Notes under the pieces: model-generated
Told to the model about the DNA's origin: nothing
The model's input: the letters and a program-made list of their open reading frames with translations, nothing else
Databases searched by the model: none
Translations under genes and position numbers: made by a program
DNA from: Candidatus Latescibacterota bacterium
Lineage (GTDB): Bacteria > Latescibacterota > UBA2968 > UBA8231
Direction: 5' to 3'
Length of the DNA stretch: 64,000 nt
NCBI GenBank assembly: GCA_965261395.1
Contig: OZ253462.1
Span: 5,824,001 to 5,888,000 of the forward strand
In this document: positions 1,127 through 10,201 of the stretch, piece by piece
Layout: each line of letters opens with the position of its first letter
How positions within the stretch are numbered: position 1 is the first letter of the stretch

Positions 1127-2018
1127 TTATATTCATTTATATGCGACCTAAAGGTAGTGCCGATCGGCTGGAATATCGTCGTCAATGGGCGGCTCAGTTG
1201 CTTGATGCCGGCAAAGGCGTCAACGAAGTAGCTCGTCTGGTCCAAGTCTCCCCTTCCTCGGTGTCTCGTTGGAAGGCGATGAAAGCGCAAGCCGGCGAGG
1301 AGGGGCTCAAAGCCAAACCGCATCCGGGTCGGGGCTGTCAGTTGAGTCCCCAAGACAAGGATCAGTTGAAACAGCTTCTGCTCCAAGGCCCCCAGGCGGC
1401 TGGCTTTGATAGCGCTGTGGACCTGTCGGCGTGTCGCGCAGGTGATGGCCCAAACGTTTGGGGTGTCCTATCATCCCGATCACGTGGGTCGTCTGCTGCA
1501 TGGGTTGGGTTTTTCATGCCAGTATCCCCAGCACCGGGCGCGCGAACGGGAGGAGGAGGCCATCCGCCAATGGCGCTTAGTGGAGTGGCCGCGGATTAAA
1601 AAAAAGCCCGGCACCAAGGGGCGACCATCGCCTTGATGGATCAGAGGGGCTTCATGCTGCAACCCACCCGTCGTAGGACGTGGGCTTTGTCGGGTCACAC
1701 GCCCATACACAAGGTGTGGGATCGCCATGATCGCTTGTCGGTTCAGGCCGCCGTTACCTTGCCGCCTCGGCGCCAGCGGTTGGGCGTTTATTTCCGAATG
1801 TATGAGCATAATATTGACCGGCAGGATGTGGTATCCTTTGTCGGTCCTCTGCGGCGTATGATACGGCGCAAGGTCGTGCTCATTTTGGATCGGTGGAGTG
1901 TGCATCGCGCCGCGGTGGCGGTATTGCACAAAAGGTATCCGGATCGACTCACCATCGAATGGTTACCCGCCTATGCACCCGAATTGAATCCGGCTGAACA
2001 GGTCTGGAATCATACTAA
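1100..2018 (+). mobile_element. IS630-family element, frameshifted and 3'-truncated
   Basis: HTH (VARLVQVSPSSVSRW), WTCRRVA winged helix, poly-A slippery site near 1598-1606, and DDE part LILDRWSVH...LPAYAPELNPAEQVW. Starts after a TA. An extra frameshift lies near 1410, and the element is cut by IS5 at 2019. Confidence 0.85.
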
Positions 2019-2919
2019 GAGTTCCTAACAAAACTCTTTGAGGTGGTTCCAACAGATGAGTATACATCCGATGTCGAGGAAGGCCTCATGGATTTCGGCT
2101 CGCCGCTCCCAGCGCACTCGTAACCGCCGAAACTGATGCAACCACGCCAACGTCCGTTCCACCACCCACCGATAGACGCCCAAGCCGCTGCCGTGGGCTT
2201 GTCCCCGCCGCGCCAACACCGCGCCGATGCCCCGCTTTTGCAAGGCGCGCCGATGCGCTTGCGAATCATAGGCCCGGTCGCCTTGCACCTGATCGGGGCG
2301 ACGACGCGGTCGGCCGACTCGACCGGCCACCGCAGGGATGCGATCCACCAACGGCAACAACTGCGTCACATCATGCCGATGCGCCCCCGTCACGCTGGCG
2401 GCCAACGGGACCCCCTGTGCATCGGTGATTACATGATGTTTGCTGCCCGGTTTGCCCCGATCGGTCGGATTGGGACCGGGGTGCGCCCCCCCCCAACCGC
2501 CCGCACCGAGGCACTATCGATCACCGCCCGAGACCCGTCGATCCGGTCGGCCGCCCGTAGTTGGTTCAACAGAATATGGTGGACGCGCTTCCAGACCCCG
2601 GCTTGCTGCCAAGCCCGCCGCCGACGCCAGCAGGTCATCCCCGAGCCGCACCCCAACTCTTGCGGCAAATACTCCCAAGGGATGCCCGTCTTGAGCACAA
2701 AGACCAGGCCGGTCAGCACCCGACGATTATCCAGCGGGGGCCGACCGCCTTTGGGCTTGGCTACATCGGGGGGTAAAACCGGTTCAATGAGTTCCCATAA
2801 CGCATCGTCGAGTACGGGCTGGGCCATGAACAAACCTCCATACCAAGGGAGTAGCATCAATACCGAACAAATGAATATAGATCAGCCTAAACGACATAAA
2901 AAGGGTTTGTTAGAGACTC
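2019..2919 (-). mobile_element. IS5-family element (two-ORF transposase, IS427-like)
   Basis: Imperfect TIRs GAGTTCCTAACAAA / TTTGTTAGAGACTC with TAA on both flanks. ORFA (MAQPVLDDALWELIEPVLP, start 2827) and ORFB (GDRAYDS...RWVVERTLAWLHQFRRLRVRWER) join at a G-run near 2486-2493. Confidence 0.9.
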
Positions 2920-2920
2920 T

Positions 2921-3613
2921 AAGGCTCCGAAGCCTCATATAATTCTTTCATCACTGCGCCCTCCAGGGCGTCGTGCTTTCACTTGTGCTCATGAACTCGG
3001 CCATCATAGCTATGGCGACGGTACGCGTATAGACGAGTTGGTTAAAGAAAGGGAAGACCCCCAGTTTGACCATAGCGAGTTCGCCGCCGATTGCTTTGCA
3101 GGTGCTCTCCTGATGCCCAAGATGGCTGTCGAGCGGGCCTTTGCGCTCCGTAAGTGGTCGATCAGTGAGTGTACACCGGACCAAGTCTATATGGTTTCCA
3201 ACTACTTCGGAGTCGGCTACACAACATTGATACACCACTTGAGAAACGCTCTCTTACTACTCCCAGGTCCCCAGGCTGAAAAACTCTTGAAAGTTCCGCC
3301 ACGGCGAGCACAAGCTTTAAGCCTCGGATGGGAGACTTCGGAAACAGTCTGGATTGCCGACGAGTATTGGACAGGAAGACCTATAGATGTTGAGGTCGGC
3401 GATCTCATCTTTGTACTTGGGCGGCCTCGTCTGGAAGGGTGTTGTGTCGAGCATGTAGCAGATAGGGATGGGGGCAGACTGATCTGCGCCCGGCAGCCCG
3501 GAATCGGCAGGCTTGAGGACAGTTCTGGTTGGTCAGCCTTCATTAGAATATCCAAGCGAGAATTCATCGGGCGAAGCCTCTTCCGACATCAGGAGGAGGT
3601 GGATGATGAGTAG
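2921..3613 (+). pseudogene. ImmA/IrrE-family zinc metallopeptidase, N-terminally truncated by IS5
   Basis: The frame is open from the IS end: KAPKPHIILSSLRPPGRRAFTCAHELGHH...EFAADCFAGALLMPK...YFGVGY. This gives HExxH plus E.xA..FA..LLMP. Confidence 0.85.
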
Positions 3614-4418
3614 TCCCTTGATCATCGTGGAGGACAACATCTCGGTGGCATGGGGCAAAGCCTTCCTGAAAGTCTTTCACGCTCGCGAGATTACCCCGCT
3701 GGTAGTGGAGATCAATAGCTTGGACAATCCGGAGTCTCCTGAGATCCCGTCTATCCGAAACGCTCTTGATGCCGCCTTGGCTAAGGATGGGAAAGGGCTA
3801 TGTTGCCATCAGGTGGCGAACACTATTTTCCCGATCTCCCTGTGGAACTCTAAGGCCGACAGACATAACCTGTACAAAAGGTATCTGAAGATCTTCCCTC
3901 GTATTCAGAAGTACCTCAGCAATCGAAATGGGGTATACTTCCAGCGCTTCATTTTATTTGGTCATGATGGCAACATGCAAGATGGGGTAAACCAACTGGA
4001 GCACATCATCCAGACGTGGAACGGCGGCAACCACCGCAGGTCCGCTTTACAAGCTGCTGCCTTTGACCCACACGTGGATCACACTCACCAACGTCAACGG
4101 GGATTCCCCTGTCTACAGCAGGTTGCGTTCGCGCCCCTAGGCAGTGATGGCCTGACCGTGACTGGCTTCTACGCCACGCAGTACATATTTGAACGTGCCT
4201 ACGGCAACTATTTAGGTCTTTGCCGTCTAGGGCGATTTATGGCCCATGAAATGGGACTGAGATTGGATAAAGTCACCTGTATAGCAACTCCCGCAATCCG
4301 GTCTAACCCGAAGAAGAAGAAGGCAGATTTGAAGGACCTTGCTCAACAAGTCGAAGTAGCCTTGGCAGGCTTTGCAGATGGAGCCGATTCCAGCATTGAT
4401 GAGGGATCTTATGCTTGA
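3603..4418 (+). CDS. Divergent thymidylate synthase-fold protein
   Basis: YFQR...NQLEHIIQ...RRSALQ...FDP..D...GFPCLQQV...YATQYIFERAYGNYLGL follows the TS motif order (PC nucleophile, Asn). GGAGG RBS; start overlaps the upstream stop. Confidence 0.7.
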   Translation: MMSSPLIIVEDNISVAWGKAFLKVFHAREITPLVVEINSLDNPESPEIPSIRNALDAALAKDGKGLCCHQVANTIFPISLWNSKADRHNLYKRYLKIFPRIQKYLSNRNGVYFQRFILFGHDGNMQDGVNQLEHIIQTWNGGNHRRSALQAAAFDPHVDHTHQRQRGFPCLQQVAFAPLGSDGLTVTGFYATQYIFERAYGNYLGLCRLGRFMAHEMGLRLDKVTCIATPAIRSNPKKKKADLKDLAQQVEVALAGFADGADSSIDEGSYA

Positions 4419-6108
4419 CCATTCCAGTCCTGGCCAAATAATCGTATTCGAGGGACCTGATGGTGTAGGGAAGTCCACGCTTTCTCAGGCCCTTGTCAAG
4501 AAGCTGACAGATATCGGTCTGCCCTGTGAGTACTTGACGTTTCCAGGTAAGGAAGCAGGGACCATAGGTCGCCTAGTTTATGACCTCCACCATGATCCCG
4601 AAGCGTTTGGCTTGGGGAAGGTCTCTGCCACTAGCCTCCAAACCCTACATATAGCTGCTCACTTGGATGTGATAGAGCAGCGTATCCAGCCGGCACTTAA
4701 TGAAGGACAGTGGGTGGTACTTGACCGGTTCTGGTGGTCTACGTGGGTTTACGGGCGGGCGTCCGCCGTGGACAGGACTATGTTGGATGCTATGATTCAG
4801 GTGGAGCGTCTTCAGTGGGATGGTACCAAGCCCGCTGTCGTCTTCCTGATTGATCGTTCTAGTCATCTACTCAAAGATGATGATCGAGCCAAACTACGCG
4901 AGGGATACCAGATCCTGTTCGAAAGGGAACAGGACCAGTACCCAGTCCGTTTGATCCAGAACGACACGTCAGTGGACGAATCCCTGAGCCAACTACTAGA
5001 GGTTCTTCAAGACCTCGTCCTTCAGGTGCAGGATAGAGCTTCTACAGAACAGACTGCCAACTCAAAGAAAAAGGTGGAGCAGCTACCTCTTTTCCTTCCA
5101 CACGAGAAGCCTCGCTCTGTCTTCACGAGACTATCTCCTGCCCAGCCGACTGTGGTGTATGACAGTTACTGGCGGTTCGCTGCGGAACGACAAGAGGTGT
5201 TTTTTCGTAAGCTATCGGGGCTTCCCGATCCTTGGACGGCTGATCGCATCCTCACCCGGTATAAGTTTACTAATGCGTACCGCGCATCAGATCGCGTCAG
5301 CCAGTACCTAATCAGGCATGTCATCTATGAGGGGGATGATAGCCCAGAAGAGGTGTTTTTTCGTACCATTCTTTTTAAGCTTTTCAATAAGATCGAAACG
5401 TGGAAGATGCTAAATGCCAAGCTGGGAACGGTCAGCTATGCTGATTACTCCTTCTCGAAATACGACCAAGTACTGGCTGAAGCTCTCTCATCCGGCACTC
5501 GGATCTATTCGGCAGCCTATATCATGCCGTCGGGCAAGACCTCGTTCGGCCATAGTCAGAAACATCGTAATAACTTGTTGCTTCTTGAACAGATGATGGA
5601 GGATGAGACTCCCCGTAGGATCGCCGATGCACCTAGCATGCAGCAAGCCTTTGAGGTATTACGCTCGTATTCGACAGTCGGCAGCTTTCTTGCCTATCAA
5701 TTCGTCACAGACCTCAACTACAGCGAACTCACAAACTTCTCGGAGATGGAGTTCGTCATACCAGGTCCAGGCGCAATGGATGGTATTCACAAGTGTTTCG
5801 CTGATCTAGGGGGCCTTAATGAGAGGGACATCATTCAAGTAGTCACGGAGCGACAAGAGCAGGAGTTTGAAAGACTAGAGCTACAGTTTCGCTCTCTGTG
5901 GGGAAGGCACCTCCAGCTCATTGACTGCCAAAACCTCTTCTGTGAAGTGTCCAAATACGCTCGTTTAAGGCATCCAGAGGTTAAGGGAGTCAACAAGCGC
6001 ACTCAGATCAAGCAGGTCTATCGTCCTTCCAAGGGACGGCTAGATTACTGGTACCCTCCTAAGTGGGGTATCAACCATCTTATCCCGCAGCCTAGGAAAT
6101 TAGTTTGA
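4411..6108 (+). CDS. dTMP-kinase-like P-loop domain fused to 5-hmdU DNA kinase helical (aGPT-Pplase clade 1-like) domain
   Basis: N-terminus has IIVFEGPDGVGKST...VVLDRFWWST. C-terminus has YWRFAAERQ...PWT.D.IL..YKFTNAYRASDRVSQYLI...FKLFNKIETW...GSFLAYQFVTDLNYS...GPGA..G...DCQNLFCEVSKY. Confidence 0.8.
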   Translation: MLDHSSPGQIIVFEGPDGVGKSTLSQALVKKLTDIGLPCEYLTFPGKEAGTIGRLVYDLHHDPEAFGLGKVSATSLQTLHIAAHLDVIEQRIQPALNEGQWVVLDRFWWSTWVYGRASAVDRTMLDAMIQVERLQWDGTKPAVVFLIDRSSHLLKDDDRAKLREGYQILFEREQDQYPVRLIQNDTSVDESLSQLLEVLQDLVLQVQDRASTEQTANSKKKVEQLPLFLPHEKPRSVFTRLSPAQPTVVYDSYWRFAAERQEVFFRKLSGLPDPWTADRILTRYKFTNAYRASDRVSQYLIRHVIYEGDDSPEEVFFRTILFKLFNKIETWKMLNAKLGTVSYADYSFSKYDQVLAEALSSGTRIYSAAYIMPSGKTSFGHSQKHRNNLLLLEQMMEDETPRRIADAPSMQQAFEVLRSYSTVGSFLAYQFVTDLNYSELTNFSEMEFVIPGPGAMDGIHKCFADLGGLNERDIIQVVTERQEQEFERLELQFRSLWGRHLQLIDCQNLFCEVSKYARLRHPEVKGVNKRTQIKQVYRPSKGRLDYWYPPKWGINHLIPQPRKLV

Positions 6109-7124
6109 TCCGTGTTTTTTCGGGACCAACCGCCGATCACGTGTGGCAGCAGATGGCAGATGCCTTCCGACAATCGGACGGCATCTGTAGCCAAAAGGGT
6201 AGAGGTGGCCCAACAAAGGAGATTCTCCATGCGGCCATATCAATCGAAGACCCTAGGCAACGCTGGGTGGTATCTCGGAAGCCATCTATAAATGTGGCCT
6301 TTGCACTGGCAGAGGTCGTATGGATCATAAACGGAAGGCGTGACCTGAAGTTCCTTGAGTTCTGGAACCAAGCCCTTCCCCGTTTTGTTGGGCCAGGGCC
6401 AGAGCTTCATGGAGCCTATGGGCATCGGCTCCGTGTTCACCTAGGCTTAGACCAGTTGAAACGGGCCTACGAGGCACTGCGACAGGATCCTGATACCAGA
6501 CAAGCGGTGCTACAGATTTGGGACTCTAGCATTGACCTACCTCGGTCTGACGGGTCACCAGTGGATCAGGACATTCCCTGCAATATCTTCTCATTGCTCA
6601 AGGTGCGTAATGGGAAATTGGAGTGGACGCAGATCATACGAAGCAACGACTTGTTTCTTGGAGTGCCTTACAACTTTGTCCAATTCACATGCCTTCAGGA
6701 GATAATAGCGGGGTGGCTGGGTATTGAGTGCGGCTCGTATAACCAGATCAGCGATAGCCTGCATCTCTATGACCGAAATATGGAGGAGGTACTCAACTCG
6801 ATGCGATCGTCAGACCTATCTTCCAATCCAGATTCTCTTGCTTTGCCATGGGAGGAATCAGAACAGGCATTTAGGGGGATGGAACATCGAATCGAGCGGA
6901 TGGTTAAGCCAGAGCTGTGTCCGGATGAACTTGAAGAGTTGTCTAAATGGGACACGGCACCAAAGGCTTACCAGAATATACTGGCTGTCCTTGTCGCTAG
7001 GGCACTACACCGACATGGTCACAGGGAAACAGCAAAGGCGGTCATGTCTTCCTGCACGAACCCTGTTTATCACGAACTTTGGTCACAGCGGTTTCTCAAC
7101 GAGACCAGGCGAAATAAAAAATAA
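6105..7124 (+). CDS. Thymidylate synthase / dUMP hydroxymethylase-like protein
   Basis: FALAEVVWI...GAYGHRLR...DQL..AY..L..DPDTRQAV..IWD...DIPCN...RSNDLFLGVPYN..QF...SLHLY. TTGA overlap with the upstream gene. Confidence 0.85.
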   Translation: MIRVFSGPTADHVWQQMADAFRQSDGICSQKGRGGPTKEILHAAISIEDPRQRWVVSRKPSINVAFALAEVVWIINGRRDLKFLEFWNQALPRFVGPGPELHGAYGHRLRVHLGLDQLKRAYEALRQDPDTRQAVLQIWDSSIDLPRSDGSPVDQDIPCNIFSLLKVRNGKLEWTQIIRSNDLFLGVPYNFVQFTCLQEIIAGWLGIECGSYNQISDSLHLYDRNMEEVLNSMRSSDLSSNPDSLALPWEESEQAFRGMEHRIERMVKPELCPDELEELSKWDTAPKAYQNILAVLVARALHRHGHRETAKAVMSSCTNPVYHELWSQRFLNETRRNKK

Positions 7125-7215
7125 ACTACCCCGCCGCAAGCAGCGGGGTATTAGCGGGAACTACTTGACGGCCTACGCCGCAAGCGGCGGGGTATTAGAC
7201 CCGAATGAGAATAAA
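7121..7215. repeat. Short double-hairpin element resembling paired IS200/IS605 ends (PATE/REP-like)
   Basis: Two near-identical hairpins: TACCCCGCCGCAAGCAGCGGGGTA (7127-7150) and CGCCGCAAGCGGCGGGGTA (7176-7194). No ORF between them. Confidence 0.6.
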
Positions 7216-7550: not shown

Positions 7551-8312
7551 CTAAGAGGTCTCCAGCCCCATGTTCTGGTGCTGGCTTTGCAGGGACTCTT
7601 GGTATCTGCGCCGGCCTTCCTCATCCACCTTGCAACTGACGCCTTCGAAGACCATGGCAAAAGCGCGGCGGTGGCGCTGCGACGAGCGATTGGGGTCGGC
7701 TCGGTGGATGACTTCGCCGTGGTGGACCACCGCGTCGCCGGGTTGCAAATGCACCGCGACTTCATTGGCTTGGTCTTGGGGGCCGTAATCGGCAATGCCC
7801 TGCGAAAAACCCAAGACCGAGGTGCGGCTGTGCGGCCGGATGCCCTTGCGATGCGAGCCAGGGCTGTAGCGCAGGCAGCCGTTTTCCTCGTCAACTGGGT
7901 CGAGGGCCAGCCAAATGGAGGCGACGTTGGGCGGCGTGAGGTTGAAGTAGAAATTGTCCTGATGCGGCGGCGTGGGGTGTTCAGTCTGCGGCGGCTTGTT
8001 GAACCACTCGGGCTGGCTCACCTCTGCGGCTTCGCCGATGAGGGTTTGCGCTAGGGCCTTCCAGCGCGGTTGGTCGCGGTAATCGGAGAAGAAGGTGTCG
8101 TAGTCGCCCATCTTCTGTAGCTGTTTCAGGGTTTCGGGCCGGTCCTTGTCTTGGTAGAAGACGGCCTGATCGGGCAAGGTTGGCACCACGTCGCGGATAT
8201 AGCGGGCGACTTGGGCCGTTAGGTTTGCGAGTTCGTCGGGGGGCAGGAAGTTCCGCACGAGGACGAAGCCATCGCGGTCATAAGCGGCTTTATAAGAGGT
8301 ATAGTCGGGCAT
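7551..8312 (-). CDS. Phytanoyl-CoA dioxygenase (PhyH) family 2OG-Fe(II) oxygenase
   Basis: YDRDGFVLVRNFL, FNKPP...TPPHQDN, WLALDPVDEENGCL..PGSH, GDAVVHH...H...N.S...RRA. Confidence 0.9.
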   Translation of the reverse strand: MPDYTSYKAAYDRDGFVLVRNFLPPDELANLTAQVARYIRDVVPTLPDQAVFYQDKDRPETLKQLQKMGDYDTFFSDYRDQPRWKALAQTLIGEAAEVSQPEWFNKPPQTEHPTPPHQDNFYFNLTPPNVASIWLALDPVDEENGCLRYSPGSHRKGIRPHSRTSVLGFSQGIADYGPQDQANEVAVHLQPGDAVVHHGEVIHRADPNRSSQRHRRAFAMVFEGVSCKVDEEGRRRYQESLQSQHQNMGLETS

Positions 8313-8597: not shown

Positions 8598-9529
8598 GAA
8601 GCCGTCTGAAAACTATATTTTTTCTATTTGATCCGTTTGAGCAGCAAGTGGATCATAGCAATCTGGATCAAGGCTTCGCTATGGTGGGTCAACACCTCAT
8701 AATCTCGGGCATGTCGGCGAAAATTCATCAACCACGCAAACGTGCGCTCGACGACCCAACGGCGTGGTAACACCTCAAAGCCGGGGCCTTGTTTGGCGAC
8801 GACTTCCAAGTCTATTTTGTGCGTCTTTTTTACGTTAGCCACCCACGTTCGGATCGGATCGCCTCGATAGCCGCCATCGCCCCACAGTTTGCGTAACCGG
8901 GCTACGCCGGAGGCCCCCAAGCGGGTCAACACCTGCTTGAGGCCGTCCCGATCCTCTACATCGGCGGCGGTGACCACCACCTGTCTAAGCAAGCCCGAGG
9001 TGTCGACCAACAGATGACGCTTGCGCCCCTTGACCTTTTTTCCGGCGTCATAACCGGTTGTTTTACCATGGGTTGCCGTCTTGATCGTCTGACTATCGAC
9101 TACGCCAGCCGACGGCGTTGGAGCCCGTCCGTTGAGGCGGCGTTCCCGCTGGGTGAGTCGATCCAATACCTGCGGCCAGACCCCTTGTAGACTCCAGCGA
9201 CGAAAGTAATCATACACCGTTTTCCACGGTCCAAAACAAGAAGGCAACAAAGCCCAAGGACAACCGGTCTTGGTCAGATACAAAAGGCCGTTGACGATCT
9301 GGCGTCGATCCCGCGGTGGCCGACCCGGACCGTTCGGCTGCCATGTCGAAGCCGGCAGCAACGGTTCGATCCGACGCCATTGCACATCGGTTACATCGGT
9401 GGCATATTGCCTACTAGGCGTACTCATCATACGAGCCTTTCTGTTCAGATTTTGTCGCGAAACCTGAATATGGCTCGATGAGTACGCCGATTCAAATACC
9501 GGCTACAGCAAGGGTTTTCAGACGGCTTC
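8598..9529 (-). mobile_element. IS5-family (IS1031-like) element with intact 268-aa transposase (8624-9430)
   Basis: Perfect 16-bp TIRs GAAGCCGTCTGAAAAC with a 3-bp TCA target duplication. Motifs DSQTIK, GYDAGKKVKGRKRHLLVDT and RWVVERTFAWL. Confidence 0.95.
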
Positions 9530-9822
9530 TCAAGAGGAACGAAATGGAGTTCGATGCGCTGGTTCAATGCAAGGGCAATGCGCTGGAGCATGGACAGCGA
9601 ATGTCCTTCGTAATCGGCATCTTCCAAGCGTGTGATCACTGGTTGCTTGGTGCCGATTCGCTCGGCCAATTCGGCTTGAGTTAGCCCCGCCACCGTCCGC
9701 GCTTCGTAGATCAAACGGGCCACTTCTGCGTTAAGAGTTTCCTCGGCAATCAGTTGCTGCATTTCCCGATCGTCGCCCGTCATCTGGTCGAGAATCTGGG
9801 TTGCATCTCGCGTCTTAGGCAT
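9445..9822 (-). CDS. higA: HigA-like XRE/HTH antitoxin, C-terminus replaced by IS-derived residues
   Basis: IYEARTVAGLTQAELAERIGTKQPVITRLEDADYEGHSLSMLQRIA; overlaps the upstream toxin. Confidence 0.85.
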   Translation of the reverse strand: MPKTRDATQILDQMTGDDREMQQLIAEETLNAEVARLIYEARTVAGLTQAELAERIGTKQPVITRLEDADYEGHSLSMLQRIALALNQRIELHFVPLEKPSENPCCSRYLNRRTHRAIFRFRDKI

Positions 9823-10201
9823 GAGAAATATTCTCCTCGTAGGTGTGCTTCTCCGGGTCTTTCAGAAAAGCTTTTTTCCGTTTGATCGCCCGCATCAGGT
9901 CCGCTTGGGAAATCGCGTCTTCTTTGACCAGCCCATGAGTCAAGATCGCTATGTTCTGACCATGAAAGAAATAGAGAATGCGATAGTTGATCCGACCGCG
10001 GCGGATGCGCAGTTCGTAGATGTCTTCTTCCAGATAGTCAGCCAGTGGACGACGAAGTTCGTGGCCGAGTTGGGCCAGCAGGCGGATGCGTGCGATGCAC
10101 TTGGCATAAACCCGTTTGTCTGTTCGCCGCAATTCCTGTAACCAACTTCGCACTGGAATATCTCGTTCATCCTGGAAGAAGAATACCTGGGTAGCGGGCA
10201 T
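9815..10201 (-). CDS. higB: RelE/ParE (HigB, Gp49-like) toxin
   Basis: GHELRRPLADYLEEDIYELRIRRGRINYRILYFFHG...LTHGLVK; toxin-first order. Confidence 0.85.
   Translation of the reverse strand: MPATQVFFFQDERDIPVRSWLQELRRTDKRVYAKCIARIRLLAQLGHELRRPLADYLEEDIYELRIRRGRINYRILYFFHGQNIAILTHGLVKEDAISQADLMRAIKRKKAFLKDPEKHTYEENISHA

Follow-up and report, generated by a model that had tools for sequence, protein, structure and literature searches.

Within the window, a 64,000-nucleotide stretch of the Candidatus Latescibacterota bacterium genome (GenBank assembly GCA_965261395.1, contig OZ253462.1, positions 5,824,001 to 5,888,000 of the forward strand), a cassette of four plus-strand genes was analyzed as a candidate nucleotide-modifying anti-phage operon. 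The first gene (2924..3613) is the 3' remnant of an M78 peptidase gene, whose frame opens at position 2921 at the boundary of an insertion sequence (IS) and lacks a start codon of its own. It is followed by TS2 (3603..4418), encoding a divergent protein of the thymidylate synthase (TS) fold recognized by a weak match to TIGR03283 and by a fold model, then by the kinase-PF18723 fusion gene (4372..6108) and by TS4 (6105..7124), which starts with TTG and encodes a TS-family protein (PF00303), predicted to be of the hydroxymethylase and uracil type, with a C-terminal extension of about 100 amino acids. The gene starts overlap the preceding stops at each cassette junction (ATGATGAGTAG, ATGCTTGA and TTGA): the TS2 ATG at 3603, preceded by AGGAGGAGG, overlaps the M78 stop, and the TTG of TS4 overlaps the kinase-PF18723 stop as TTGA. 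Homologues of the kinase-PF18723 protein align from residue ~14-21 of the open reading frame (ORF) 4372-6108, and the true start of this gene is probably the ATG at 4411, overlapping the TS2 stop. Three bases past the TS4 stop, a GC-rich hairpin with a 10-bp stem (7127..7150, listed with no strand specified) matched a terminator-like consensus, and nothing beyond that; the match was called on the minus strand, which carries the T run, and the hairpin probably marks the end of the operon. The initial annotation, made from the sequence and its ORFs, had described four co-oriented, stop-overlapping genes at this place, and profile searches confirmed both the arrangement and the domains, with matches to Thymidylat_synt, Thymidylate_kin, HMUDK_hel and Peptidase_M78 and no Pfam match for TS2.

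The cassette is the 3', enzyme-coding two-thirds of a six-gene operon. In the intact form found in two related loci (L004 and L013), the operon codes for an acyl carrier protein (ACP)-like carrier of about 100 amino acids, an XRE repressor with a helix-turn-helix (HTH) domain (HTH_31, E = 6e-16), an M78 peptidase of 285 amino acids, TS2, kinase-PF18723 and TS4. A tblastn search with the intact-operon proteins aligned residues 56-285 of the L004 peptidase to positions 2921-3610 of the window with 67% identity and detected no trace of the HTH protein, the ACP-like carrier or the peptidase N-terminus in the window. The carrier, the repressor and peptidase residues 1-56 were found at C1:5631866-5632724 on the minus strand, that is, 194,888 bp from the window half and on the opposite strand. 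The set of four genes, taken for a complete cassette in the initial annotation, thus lacks its promoter-proximal third in the window because of the IS.

The peptidase gene is interrupted after codon 56 by an IS5-family element (2016..2923, minus strand) with two overlapping transposase ORFs (2025-2405 and 2429-2860) and TAAG flanking it at both ends. The genome contains four full-length, 100% identical copies of this element, three matching positions 1-908 and one matching positions 3-905. The copy at C1:5630962-5631869 (L090 4963-5870), 100% identical over 908 bp, abuts the 5' half of the operon. The outer flanks of both copies are the two halves of a KAP NTPase gene disrupted by an IS630-like element. 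In the window, the KAP_NTPase N-terminal fragment (608-1126) is located upstream of the cassette with two nested IS between, and the IS630-like transposase (1141-2028, with HTH at 1141-1599 and DDE_3 at 1633-2028) is cut by the IS5-like element at 2016. The flanks are reciprocal, the N-part of the M78 gene being joined with the C-part of the KAP gene and the N-part of the KAP gene with the C-part of the M78 gene. Such a pattern implies that the IS5-like element was inserted into the protease gene and that about 195 kb was then apparently inverted by recombination with a second, inversely oriented copy.

Both operon halves have a GC content of 51.4-51.6%, compared with 59.3% for the genome, in which a GC content this low occurs in only 2.8% of 4.2-kb windows. 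The similar low GC of the two halves fits a single acquired unit, and the operon is horizontally acquired. The lengths of TS2, kinase-PF18723 and TS4 equal those of their homologues, and the three ORFs are intact; together with the identity of the IS copies, this indicates that the break is recent. This genome has no intact HExxH protease with an adjacent XRE repressor, as the protease is split after residue 56. Cut off from the promoter and regulators, the enzymes encoded in the window probably form a system that is silent or unregulated in this bacterium.

To place the operon among its relatives, one genome per species was scanned with the kinase-PF18723 protein. Of 136 relatives, the best 80 loci were examined, using tblastn and clustering of ORFs called crudely (longest ORF, greedy non-overlap); all 80 were counted, including those truncated by contig ends. 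They came from Chloroflexota, Thermodesulfobacteriota, Acidobacteriota, Cyanobacteriota, Planctomycetota, Verrucomicrobiota, Latescibacterota and other phyla. The kinase domain was present in 60 loci, TS2 in 57, the HTH and M78 genes in 54 each, TS4 and the ACP-like gene in 49 each, MazG with MazG_C in 31, Nmad2 (PF18753, E = 6e-74) and a ThsB-type TIR protein in 24 each, a dCTP-deaminase-like (DCD) protein in 17, an AcpS-type phosphopantetheinyl transferase (PPTase) in 11 and DUF1643 in nine. At least one of the two TS-fold genes, TS2 or TS4, was found in 77 of the 80 loci. The gene order HTH-M78-TS2-kinase/PF18723-TS4 was conserved in 27 loci, in 25 of them with the ACP-like gene, and because the same order recurs in other phyla, the arrangement is not a product of chance. 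TS4 and MazG/MazG_C alternate and are nearly mutually exclusive (TS4 only in 45 loci, MazG only in 27, both in four, neither in four). The ACP-like gene always occurred with M78 (49 loci versus 0 without it) and lay upstream of the HTH-M78 pair in 49 of 54 loci, and TS2 accompanied HTH and M78 in 53 loci.

Three arrangements could be distinguished. Type A, that of the window, consists of ACP, HTH, M78, TS2, optional DCD, kinase-PF18723 and TS4, and the neighborhood survey thus did recover intact homologous operons, complete in 25 of the 80 loci. In type B, a divergently transcribed RmrA-like gene for a fused HTH-M78 protein (PADLOC, E = 2e-54) is followed by kinase-PF18723, TS4, TIR and Nmad2. 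Type C, consisting of an optional PPTase, ACP, HTH, M78, TS2, PF18723 with or without the kinase, and MazG/MazG_C, was met mostly in cyanobacteria and on rhizobial plasmids. The TIR-Nmad2 module is optional, and 17 of the 24 loci carrying it lacked TS2.

Several features of single loci were also recorded. In L014 (7137-9677), TS2, the kinase and PF18723 form a single ORF of 846 amino acids. The kinase and PF18723 appear as separate ORFs in L028, L038, L041, L052-L057 and L061; the fused form and the separate forms may be genuine or may reflect sequencing frameshifts. Type B loci were seen in metagenome-assembled genomes of Dehalococcoidia (L007-L012, L015, L018 and L051), with a PIN-like gene beside the RmrA-like HTH-M78 gene, an unknown 167-amino-acid protein after TS4, then Nmad2 and either one or two TIR proteins of the ThsB type. 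In some cases a single genome harbors a pair of related loci (L009/L015, L011/L021, L005/L056 and L006/L068). In L083, on plasmid pSfreNXT3a of Sinorhizobium fredii, the neighbors of a type C cassette are acpS, a TS gene of its own standing, a dCTP deaminase gene, an ABC-three-component system and VapBC, which makes a defense-island-like setting on a conjugative plasmid.

The cassette is accessory, not housekeeping, and the family is widespread but sporadic, and modular. None of 40 relatives of the bacterium, 24 of them congeneric, carried any part of the cassette beyond a match to the housekeeping Tmk, and PF18723 was found in three of 168 genomes of the phylum, its own genome included. A pattern-based scan of 2.9 million IMG/VR contigs revealed TS2 in at least one contig, a lower bound. 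That contig (L092, 2952-6723) encodes DUF1643, HTH, M78, TS2 and MazG/MazG_C and has no PF18723, which indicates that the TS2 block can occur without this domain. The gene-context annotation covered positions 1-12.2 kb of the window, and no phage structural genes were seen there. These distributions agree with the cellular, non-prophage nature that had been proposed for the cassette.

Downstream of TS4 are located, all on the minus strand, a PhyH dioxygenase gene (7551-8312), an IS4/5 transposase gene (8624-9430) and a pair of Gp49/HigB-like (PF05973) and HTH_37 genes (9445-10201), probably a toxin-antitoxin module. The position of an IS-broken copy among IS and toxin-antitoxin genes, as well as the ordinary metabolic folds of the TS and Tmk domains, could be taken to mean that the cassette is a degraded prophage fragment or just a set of redundant thyA/tmk paralogues of the housekeeping kind, which do not work together as a system. 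Such an explanation is barely credible, being largely refuted by the synteny survey, in which the gene order with overlapping stops is conserved across many phyla; moreover, a canonical ThyA and a canonical Tmk are encoded elsewhere in the genome, TS4 scores below every NCBIfam TS cut-off, and the pattern-based scan of 2.9 million IMG/VR contigs detected TS2 relatives in one locus, which is a lower bound.

TS4 matched Thymidylat_synt (PF00303, E = 5e-23) and phrog_5131 (E = 4e-61) and contains the motifs DIPCN, RSND, LGVPYN and H..Y, among them the PCN and the Asn of LGVPYN to which the initial annotation had drawn attention. All 22 sequences of alignment A2 (22 of the 49 TS4 proteins) share the catalytic Cys of PCN, the RSND motif, the Asn that reads the base and the H..Y pair. 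In a comparison with profiles of proteins in the Protein Data Bank (PDB), TS4 matched the CMP hydroxymethylase MilA with E = 8.5e-42, and the best classical TS with E = 1.4e-23; the base-reading position is occupied by Asn in TS4 and by Asp in MilA. The best phage match was an SPO1-like 'deoxyuridylate hydroxymethyltransferase', aligned over 93% of TS4 with E = 6e-36, followed by ViI-like and Pseudomonas phage enzymes. With 52-79 bits, TS4 remained below every one of the NCBIfam thymidylate synthase cut-offs (108-576). These data are consistent with the hydroxymethylase-like, uracil-type character suggested beforehand, and TS4 is most likely a deoxyuridine monophosphate (dUMP) C5-hydroxymethylase, homology being unable to separate hydroxymethylation from methylation. 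The role of TS4 as a thyA complement was rejected, since a canonical ThyA is encoded elsewhere in the genome (C1:5766027-5766812, E = 1.6e-120) and TS4 is not its sole TS.

The kinase part of the kinase-PF18723 protein (residues 26-189) matched Pfam Thymidylate_kin with E = 2e-17 and the C-terminal part (residues 261-539) matched HMUDK_hel, PF18723, with E = 1e-111. The kinase domain contains the Walker A motif GPDGVGKST and also a DRF motif. Among its phage matches (30 of 50 records listed), the proteins were named thymidylate kinase or hypothetical protein, or were unannotated. No similarity to a gp54-type kinase from one Yuavirus (M6-like) phage was observed (BLASTP, E = 0.64), this kinase had no match in the genome, and it found none in the 80 loci. 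The gene had been read as a fusion of a dTMP kinase with a 5-hydroxymethyldeoxyuridine (5-hmdU) DNA kinase; the presence of two kinase domains was rejected, as the protein has a single, Tmk-like P-loop domain.

The label '5-hmdU DNA kinase' is only the present Pfam name of another domain, that of aGPT-Pplase clade 1. A Kuttervirus protein annotated as 'aGPT-Pplase clade 1' matched the PF18723 model with E = 4e-83, and an alignment of PF18723 against the Yuavirus Pplase1 gave an hhalign probability of 97.7% (E = 2e-12, 261 columns). PF18723 (HMUDK_hel) is thus the former aGPT-Pplase clade 1, which is a standalone protein in ViI-like and M6-like phages. In the family the region is highly conserved (65% mean column identity in alignment A4, built from 17 of the 80 PF18723 proteins, domain-only or split forms), with the invariant motifs KFTNAYRASDR, PGPG, KCF and IDCQNLFCE, a pattern more in keeping with an enzyme than with a passive helical appendage. 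No demonstrated activity of aGPT-Pplase clade 1 was found in the available portions of the literature consulted. The AlphaFold2 model of the domain (17-row alignment) had a predicted local distance difference test (pLDDT) score of 45.0 and was unusable, and no relative was found among PDB profiles (best E = 0.54). An ESM Atlas feature search with PF18723 placed clusters of the amino-acid:DNA transferase (ADDT, PF18724) on top (0.91, 0.90 and 0.90), which is a lead only, and the alignment against one Yuavirus ADDT gave an hhalign probability of 0.1%. A Cys-Glu pair seemingly common to PF18723 and ADDT was noticed as a reading of the alignment only. The same domain is called 'aGPT-Pplase clade 1' in phage records and 'HMUDK_hel, 5-hmdU DNA kinase helical domain' in current Pfam, and standalone PF18723 proteins are named 'nucleotide kinase domain-containing protein' in RefSeq though the P-loop is absent. 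This naming can mislead annotation, and the correction of the '5-hmdU DNA kinase' label to aGPT-Pplase clade 1 is one outcome of the analysis.

TS2 matched the archaeal thymidylate synthase model TIGR03283 with E = 1.3e-9, below the cut-off. An FPC(L/Q) Cys171 and a YGN Asn203 are conserved in alignment A3 (24 of the 57 TS2 proteins), and YATQ is present where TS enzymes carry the RSxD nucleotide/folate-binding motif. The relationship to the TS4 family was visible at the profile level only (hhalign probability 49.7%, E = 1.7e-4). The AlphaFold (AF2) model of TS2 had a pLDDT of 90.6, and the best Foldseek match of the model was MilA (E = 7.6e-10, TMq 0.59), with a phage dCMP hydroxylase and many TS structures also retrieved. 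According to the model, TS2 has the TS fold, so the view that the cassette encodes two TS-fold enzymes was upheld.

The M78 remnant retains HELGHH and matched PF06114 (E = 6e-12) and the PADLOC model capP (E = 1.5e-12). In the family, HExxH is invariant (alignment A6, 22 of the 54 M78 proteins), the XRE repressor and M78 genes are adjacent in 54 of the 80 loci, and the best PADLOC models were capH for the HTH protein (E = 2.7e-11) and capP for M78 (E = 4.4e-18). The proposed ImmA/IrrE-like proteolytic switch is plausible, as intact loci carry the XRE partner. CapP responds to DNA damage or single-stranded DNA (ssDNA).

The first protein of the operon has an FDS serine that is invariant in all 24 sequences of alignment A1 (23 of 49 from the loci and the copy from this genome). 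PF00550 (PP-binding) matched 13 of the 24 at E <= 0.1, ACPs were the best PDB profiles (E = 1.8e-4) with the serine aligned to that of DSL, and one member is named 'acyl carrier protein' in RefSeq. This protein is acyl-carrier-protein-like, with the features predicted for a phosphopantetheine carrier. A complex prediction for M78 and TS2 with the ACP-like protein as partner gave 0.84, 0.81 and 0.83, with 0.00 and 0.00 after replacement of this partner and 0.77 after replacement of M78, which speaks neither for nor against binding. A rather unlikely proposal is that the ACP-like protein serves as a phosphopantetheinylated catalytic partner of TS2, and perhaps of PF18723, yielding a carrier-linked or thiol-derived C5-modified pyrimidine and, in the extreme case, a carrier tethered to hydroxymethyl-uracil-type bases in replicating DNA. 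We know of no phage pathway or defense system with carrier-protein-dependent nucleobase chemistry. If the carrier were catalytic, it would represent new nucleobase chemistry used as immunity.

A carrier gene in first position, with its invariant FDS serine, is also a hallmark of secondary metabolism, as is an own AcpS-type transferase, present in 11 of the 80 loci, and among solved structures MilA of mildiomycin biosynthesis comes nearest to both TS-fold proteins. The TS-fold enzymes, the kinase and a carrier bearing phosphopantetheine might accordingly yield a modified pyrimidine in free form, as nucleotide or base, which would be an antimetabolite or signal, instead of modified DNA. This is quite improbable, because genes for adenylation, ketosynthase, condensation, glycosidase or export functions were not recurrent in the annotated clusters of the 80 loci, the operon stands under a CapH/CapP-like switch, and the best grouping of TS4 is with the dUMP hydroxymethylases of phages, enzymes that supply DNA synthesis.

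Phage clusters for thymidine hypermodification are known from M6/Yuavirus, ViI/Kuttervirus, PaMx11 and SP10 (as described in the available parts of Lee et al. 2018, PMC5889632; Lee et al. 2021, PMC8989533; and PMC13458397). The order of genes in the M6-like Yuavirus cluster is ADDT, a pyridoxal phosphate (PLP) enzyme, a radical-SAM enzyme, kinase, Pplase1, Nmad5, further genes and TS. When Yuavirus proteins were used as queries against the 80 loci, Pplase1 was found in all 80 and TS in 50, with up to 40% identity; no match in any of the 80 loci was obtained with ADDT, the gp54-type kinase or Nmad5. ADDT/aGPT-Pplase clade 2 (PF18724) was also absent from the genome at E <= 0.1. The further modification of 5-hmdU in DNA that the initial annotation had ascribed to the cassette thus lost its enzymatic basis, ADDT/aGPT-Pplase clade 2 being missing from the genome and from all 80 loci. 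In lysates, the M6 kinase gp54 and the clade 2 protein gp51 were enough, and gp52, gp53 and gp55 were not needed, according to the available part of the source (PMC8989533). A 2026 paper, likewise in its available part, describes a pre-replicative route consisting of dCMP deaminase, dUMP hydroxymethylase and host kinases, with a dTTPase/dUTPase channeling the pool. The cassettes appear to carry counterparts of this route (DCD-like protein or MazG, TS4 or TS2 and a kinase of their own) together with Pplase1. Judged by gene content, bacteria have adopted that half of the phage hypermodification pathway which does the feeding, but neither the DNA kinase nor the transferase.

A cellular unit with similar domains has been described by DeWeirdt, Mahoney and Laub (DefensePredictor; Science 2026, PMC13092281; bioRxiv 10.1101/2025.01.08.631726), who, according to the available text, cloned predicted E. 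coli units and validated 42 of them. The newly validated domains listed there include 'a 5-hydroxymethyluracil kinase' and 'a thymidylate synthase', and the legend of Fig. 3 presents a TS, dNMPk, 5hmdUk and NMAD unit that was experimentally protective in E. coli (PMC13092281). The mechanism section, as far as the available text extends, leaves out this system, and the paper lists systems with aGPT-Pplase, MazG, MazG-C, dUTPase and NMAD as predicted and unvalidated, citing Burroughs et al. 2015 (PMC13092281). The statement of the initial annotation that the cassette is not a recognized defense system is therefore outdated with respect to the accessible part of that study, and the cassette belongs to a kind that is known and partly validated.

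It appears moderately probable that the window holds the enzyme part of an acquired six-gene operon of a modular family, acting as an inducible anti-phage system that resembles the pre-replicative pathway and is broken in this bacterium. According to this proposal, the repressor-protease pair would hold the operon off until a signal arrives, whereupon the protease would cleave the repressor. Deaminase-like (DCD) or MazG enzymes would feed dUMP, TS4 would convert it to 5-hydroxymethyl-dUMP and the fused Tmk-like kinase would phosphorylate the product. In this way dUMP would be diverted from dTMP, dTTP would fall, and C5-modified dU would enter the pool and the replicating DNA, where it would poison or mark phage replication. 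A further step would fall to the carrier protein together with TS2 and PF18723.

A number of observations weigh against this proposal. The DNA-level step is speculative, as ADDT and the gp54-type kinase are absent, and the M6 in vitro reaction ran without gp55, the position annotated as aGPT-Pplase1 in a Yuavirus relative, according to the available parts of these sources. The kinship of the cassette to the E. coli unit of DefensePredictor is by domain names only, as far as the available text permits a comparison. That unit has NMAD, whereas a tblastn search with six Nmad2 proteins from related loci detected no Nmad2 in this genome, and a 'distant' blastn search of E. coli genomes with window positions 4372-7124 or with the gammaproteobacterial homologue L034 gave no match. 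PADLOC has no model matching TS2, TS4, the PF18723 domain or the ACP-like protein. As the loci were picked via similarity to kinase-PF18723, the counts are conditional on it, and contig ends truncate some of the loci. What looks like an inversion might also have arisen in assembly, through a join at the repeated IS, in which case the IS insertion itself would remain.

The plasmid-borne relatives bring in another explanation. Among plasmid records, 23 contained PF18723, seven of them typed as conjugative and three as mobilizable. Mobile elements might use the operon to modify their own DNA or to counter restriction: on entry into a new host or on induction, C5-modified dU would replace T in the DNA of the element and let it evade restriction, as in the homologous phage pathways. 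A CapP-like switch responding to DNA damage or ssDNA would fire on conjugative entry too, and the sole characterized relatives of TS4 and PF18723 are found in phage clusters that protect phage DNA (available part of PMC8989533). This explanation is nevertheless considered unlikely: most of the 80 loci are chromosomal, the absence of ADDT and the gp54-type kinase would allow at most 5-hmdU or a simple derivative, a ThsB-type TIR protein and Nmad2 are present in 24 of the 80 loci, and the unit with like domains protects E. coli from phage in the accessible portion of the DefensePredictor study. An inducible anti-phage function is thus the preferred interpretation, with the broken window copy being valuable as a pointer to the family and not as a working example.

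Compared with the phage clusters, the cassettes share a TS predicted to be of the dUMP-hydroxymethylase type and the PF18723/aGPT-Pplase clade 1 protein, the location of the kinase next to Pplase1 and the presence of helpers such as dCTP/dCMP deaminase and dUTPase-like proteins. They differ in lacking ADDT, the gp54-type 5-hmdU DNA kinase (5-HMUDK) and the PLP or radical-SAM tailoring enzymes; the cassette kinase is Tmk-like and the setting is cellular and repressor-controlled, in contrast to a lytic phage genome. With MilA (PDB 5b6d and 5jnh) and the SPO1-type dUMP hydroxymethylase, the cassette enzymes share the TS fold, the catalytic Cys and the nucleotide-phosphate motif. MilA, however, has Asp where TS4 has Asn, TS2 is without RSxD altogether, and the activities suggested for TS4 and TS2 derive from homology only.

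The pairs CapH/CapP of CBASS, ImmR/ImmA and DdrO/IrrE consist of an XRE repressor and an M78 protease as regulators. The operon resembles them in having the XRE repressor gene directly upstream of the gene for an HExxH M78 protease. It differs from CapH/CapP in that the pair here would control nucleotide-modifying enzymes and is preceded by the ACP-like gene; moreover, the protease gene of this bacterium is broken in two. In the PADLOC check suggested in the initial annotation, the capH/capP matches were obtained and PDC-M51B was the only match on the kinase-PF18723 gene, confined to the kinase domain (E = 1.7e-13); TS2, TS4 and PF18723 are without a model, as are Nmad2, DCD, MazG and DUF1643. 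No description of the ACP/HTH/M78/TS2 block was found in the literature searched, where only the DefensePredictor and phage papers turned up.

The E. coli unit of DefensePredictor, as presented in the available part of the paper, shares the domain vocabulary of kinase-PF18723 and TS4 (PF00303, PF02223 and PF18723 adjacent), by domain name only, and is likewise a cellular cassette, tested as defense; its NMAD component has a parallel in the Nmad2 of 24 of the 80 related loci. Unlike that unit, as far as it is described there, the type found in the window also comprises an ACP-like carrier, a further protein of the TS fold and, as separate genes, CapH/CapP-like regulators. The survey gives this kind of system a defined anatomy, in which kinase-PF18723 has one or both TS-fold enzymes beside it (77 of 80 loci) and is combined with interchangeable feeder/kinase modules (TS4, MazG/MazG_C and DCD), an optional TIR-Nmad2 module and the block of ACP-like carrier, CapH-like repressor, CapP-like protease and TS2.

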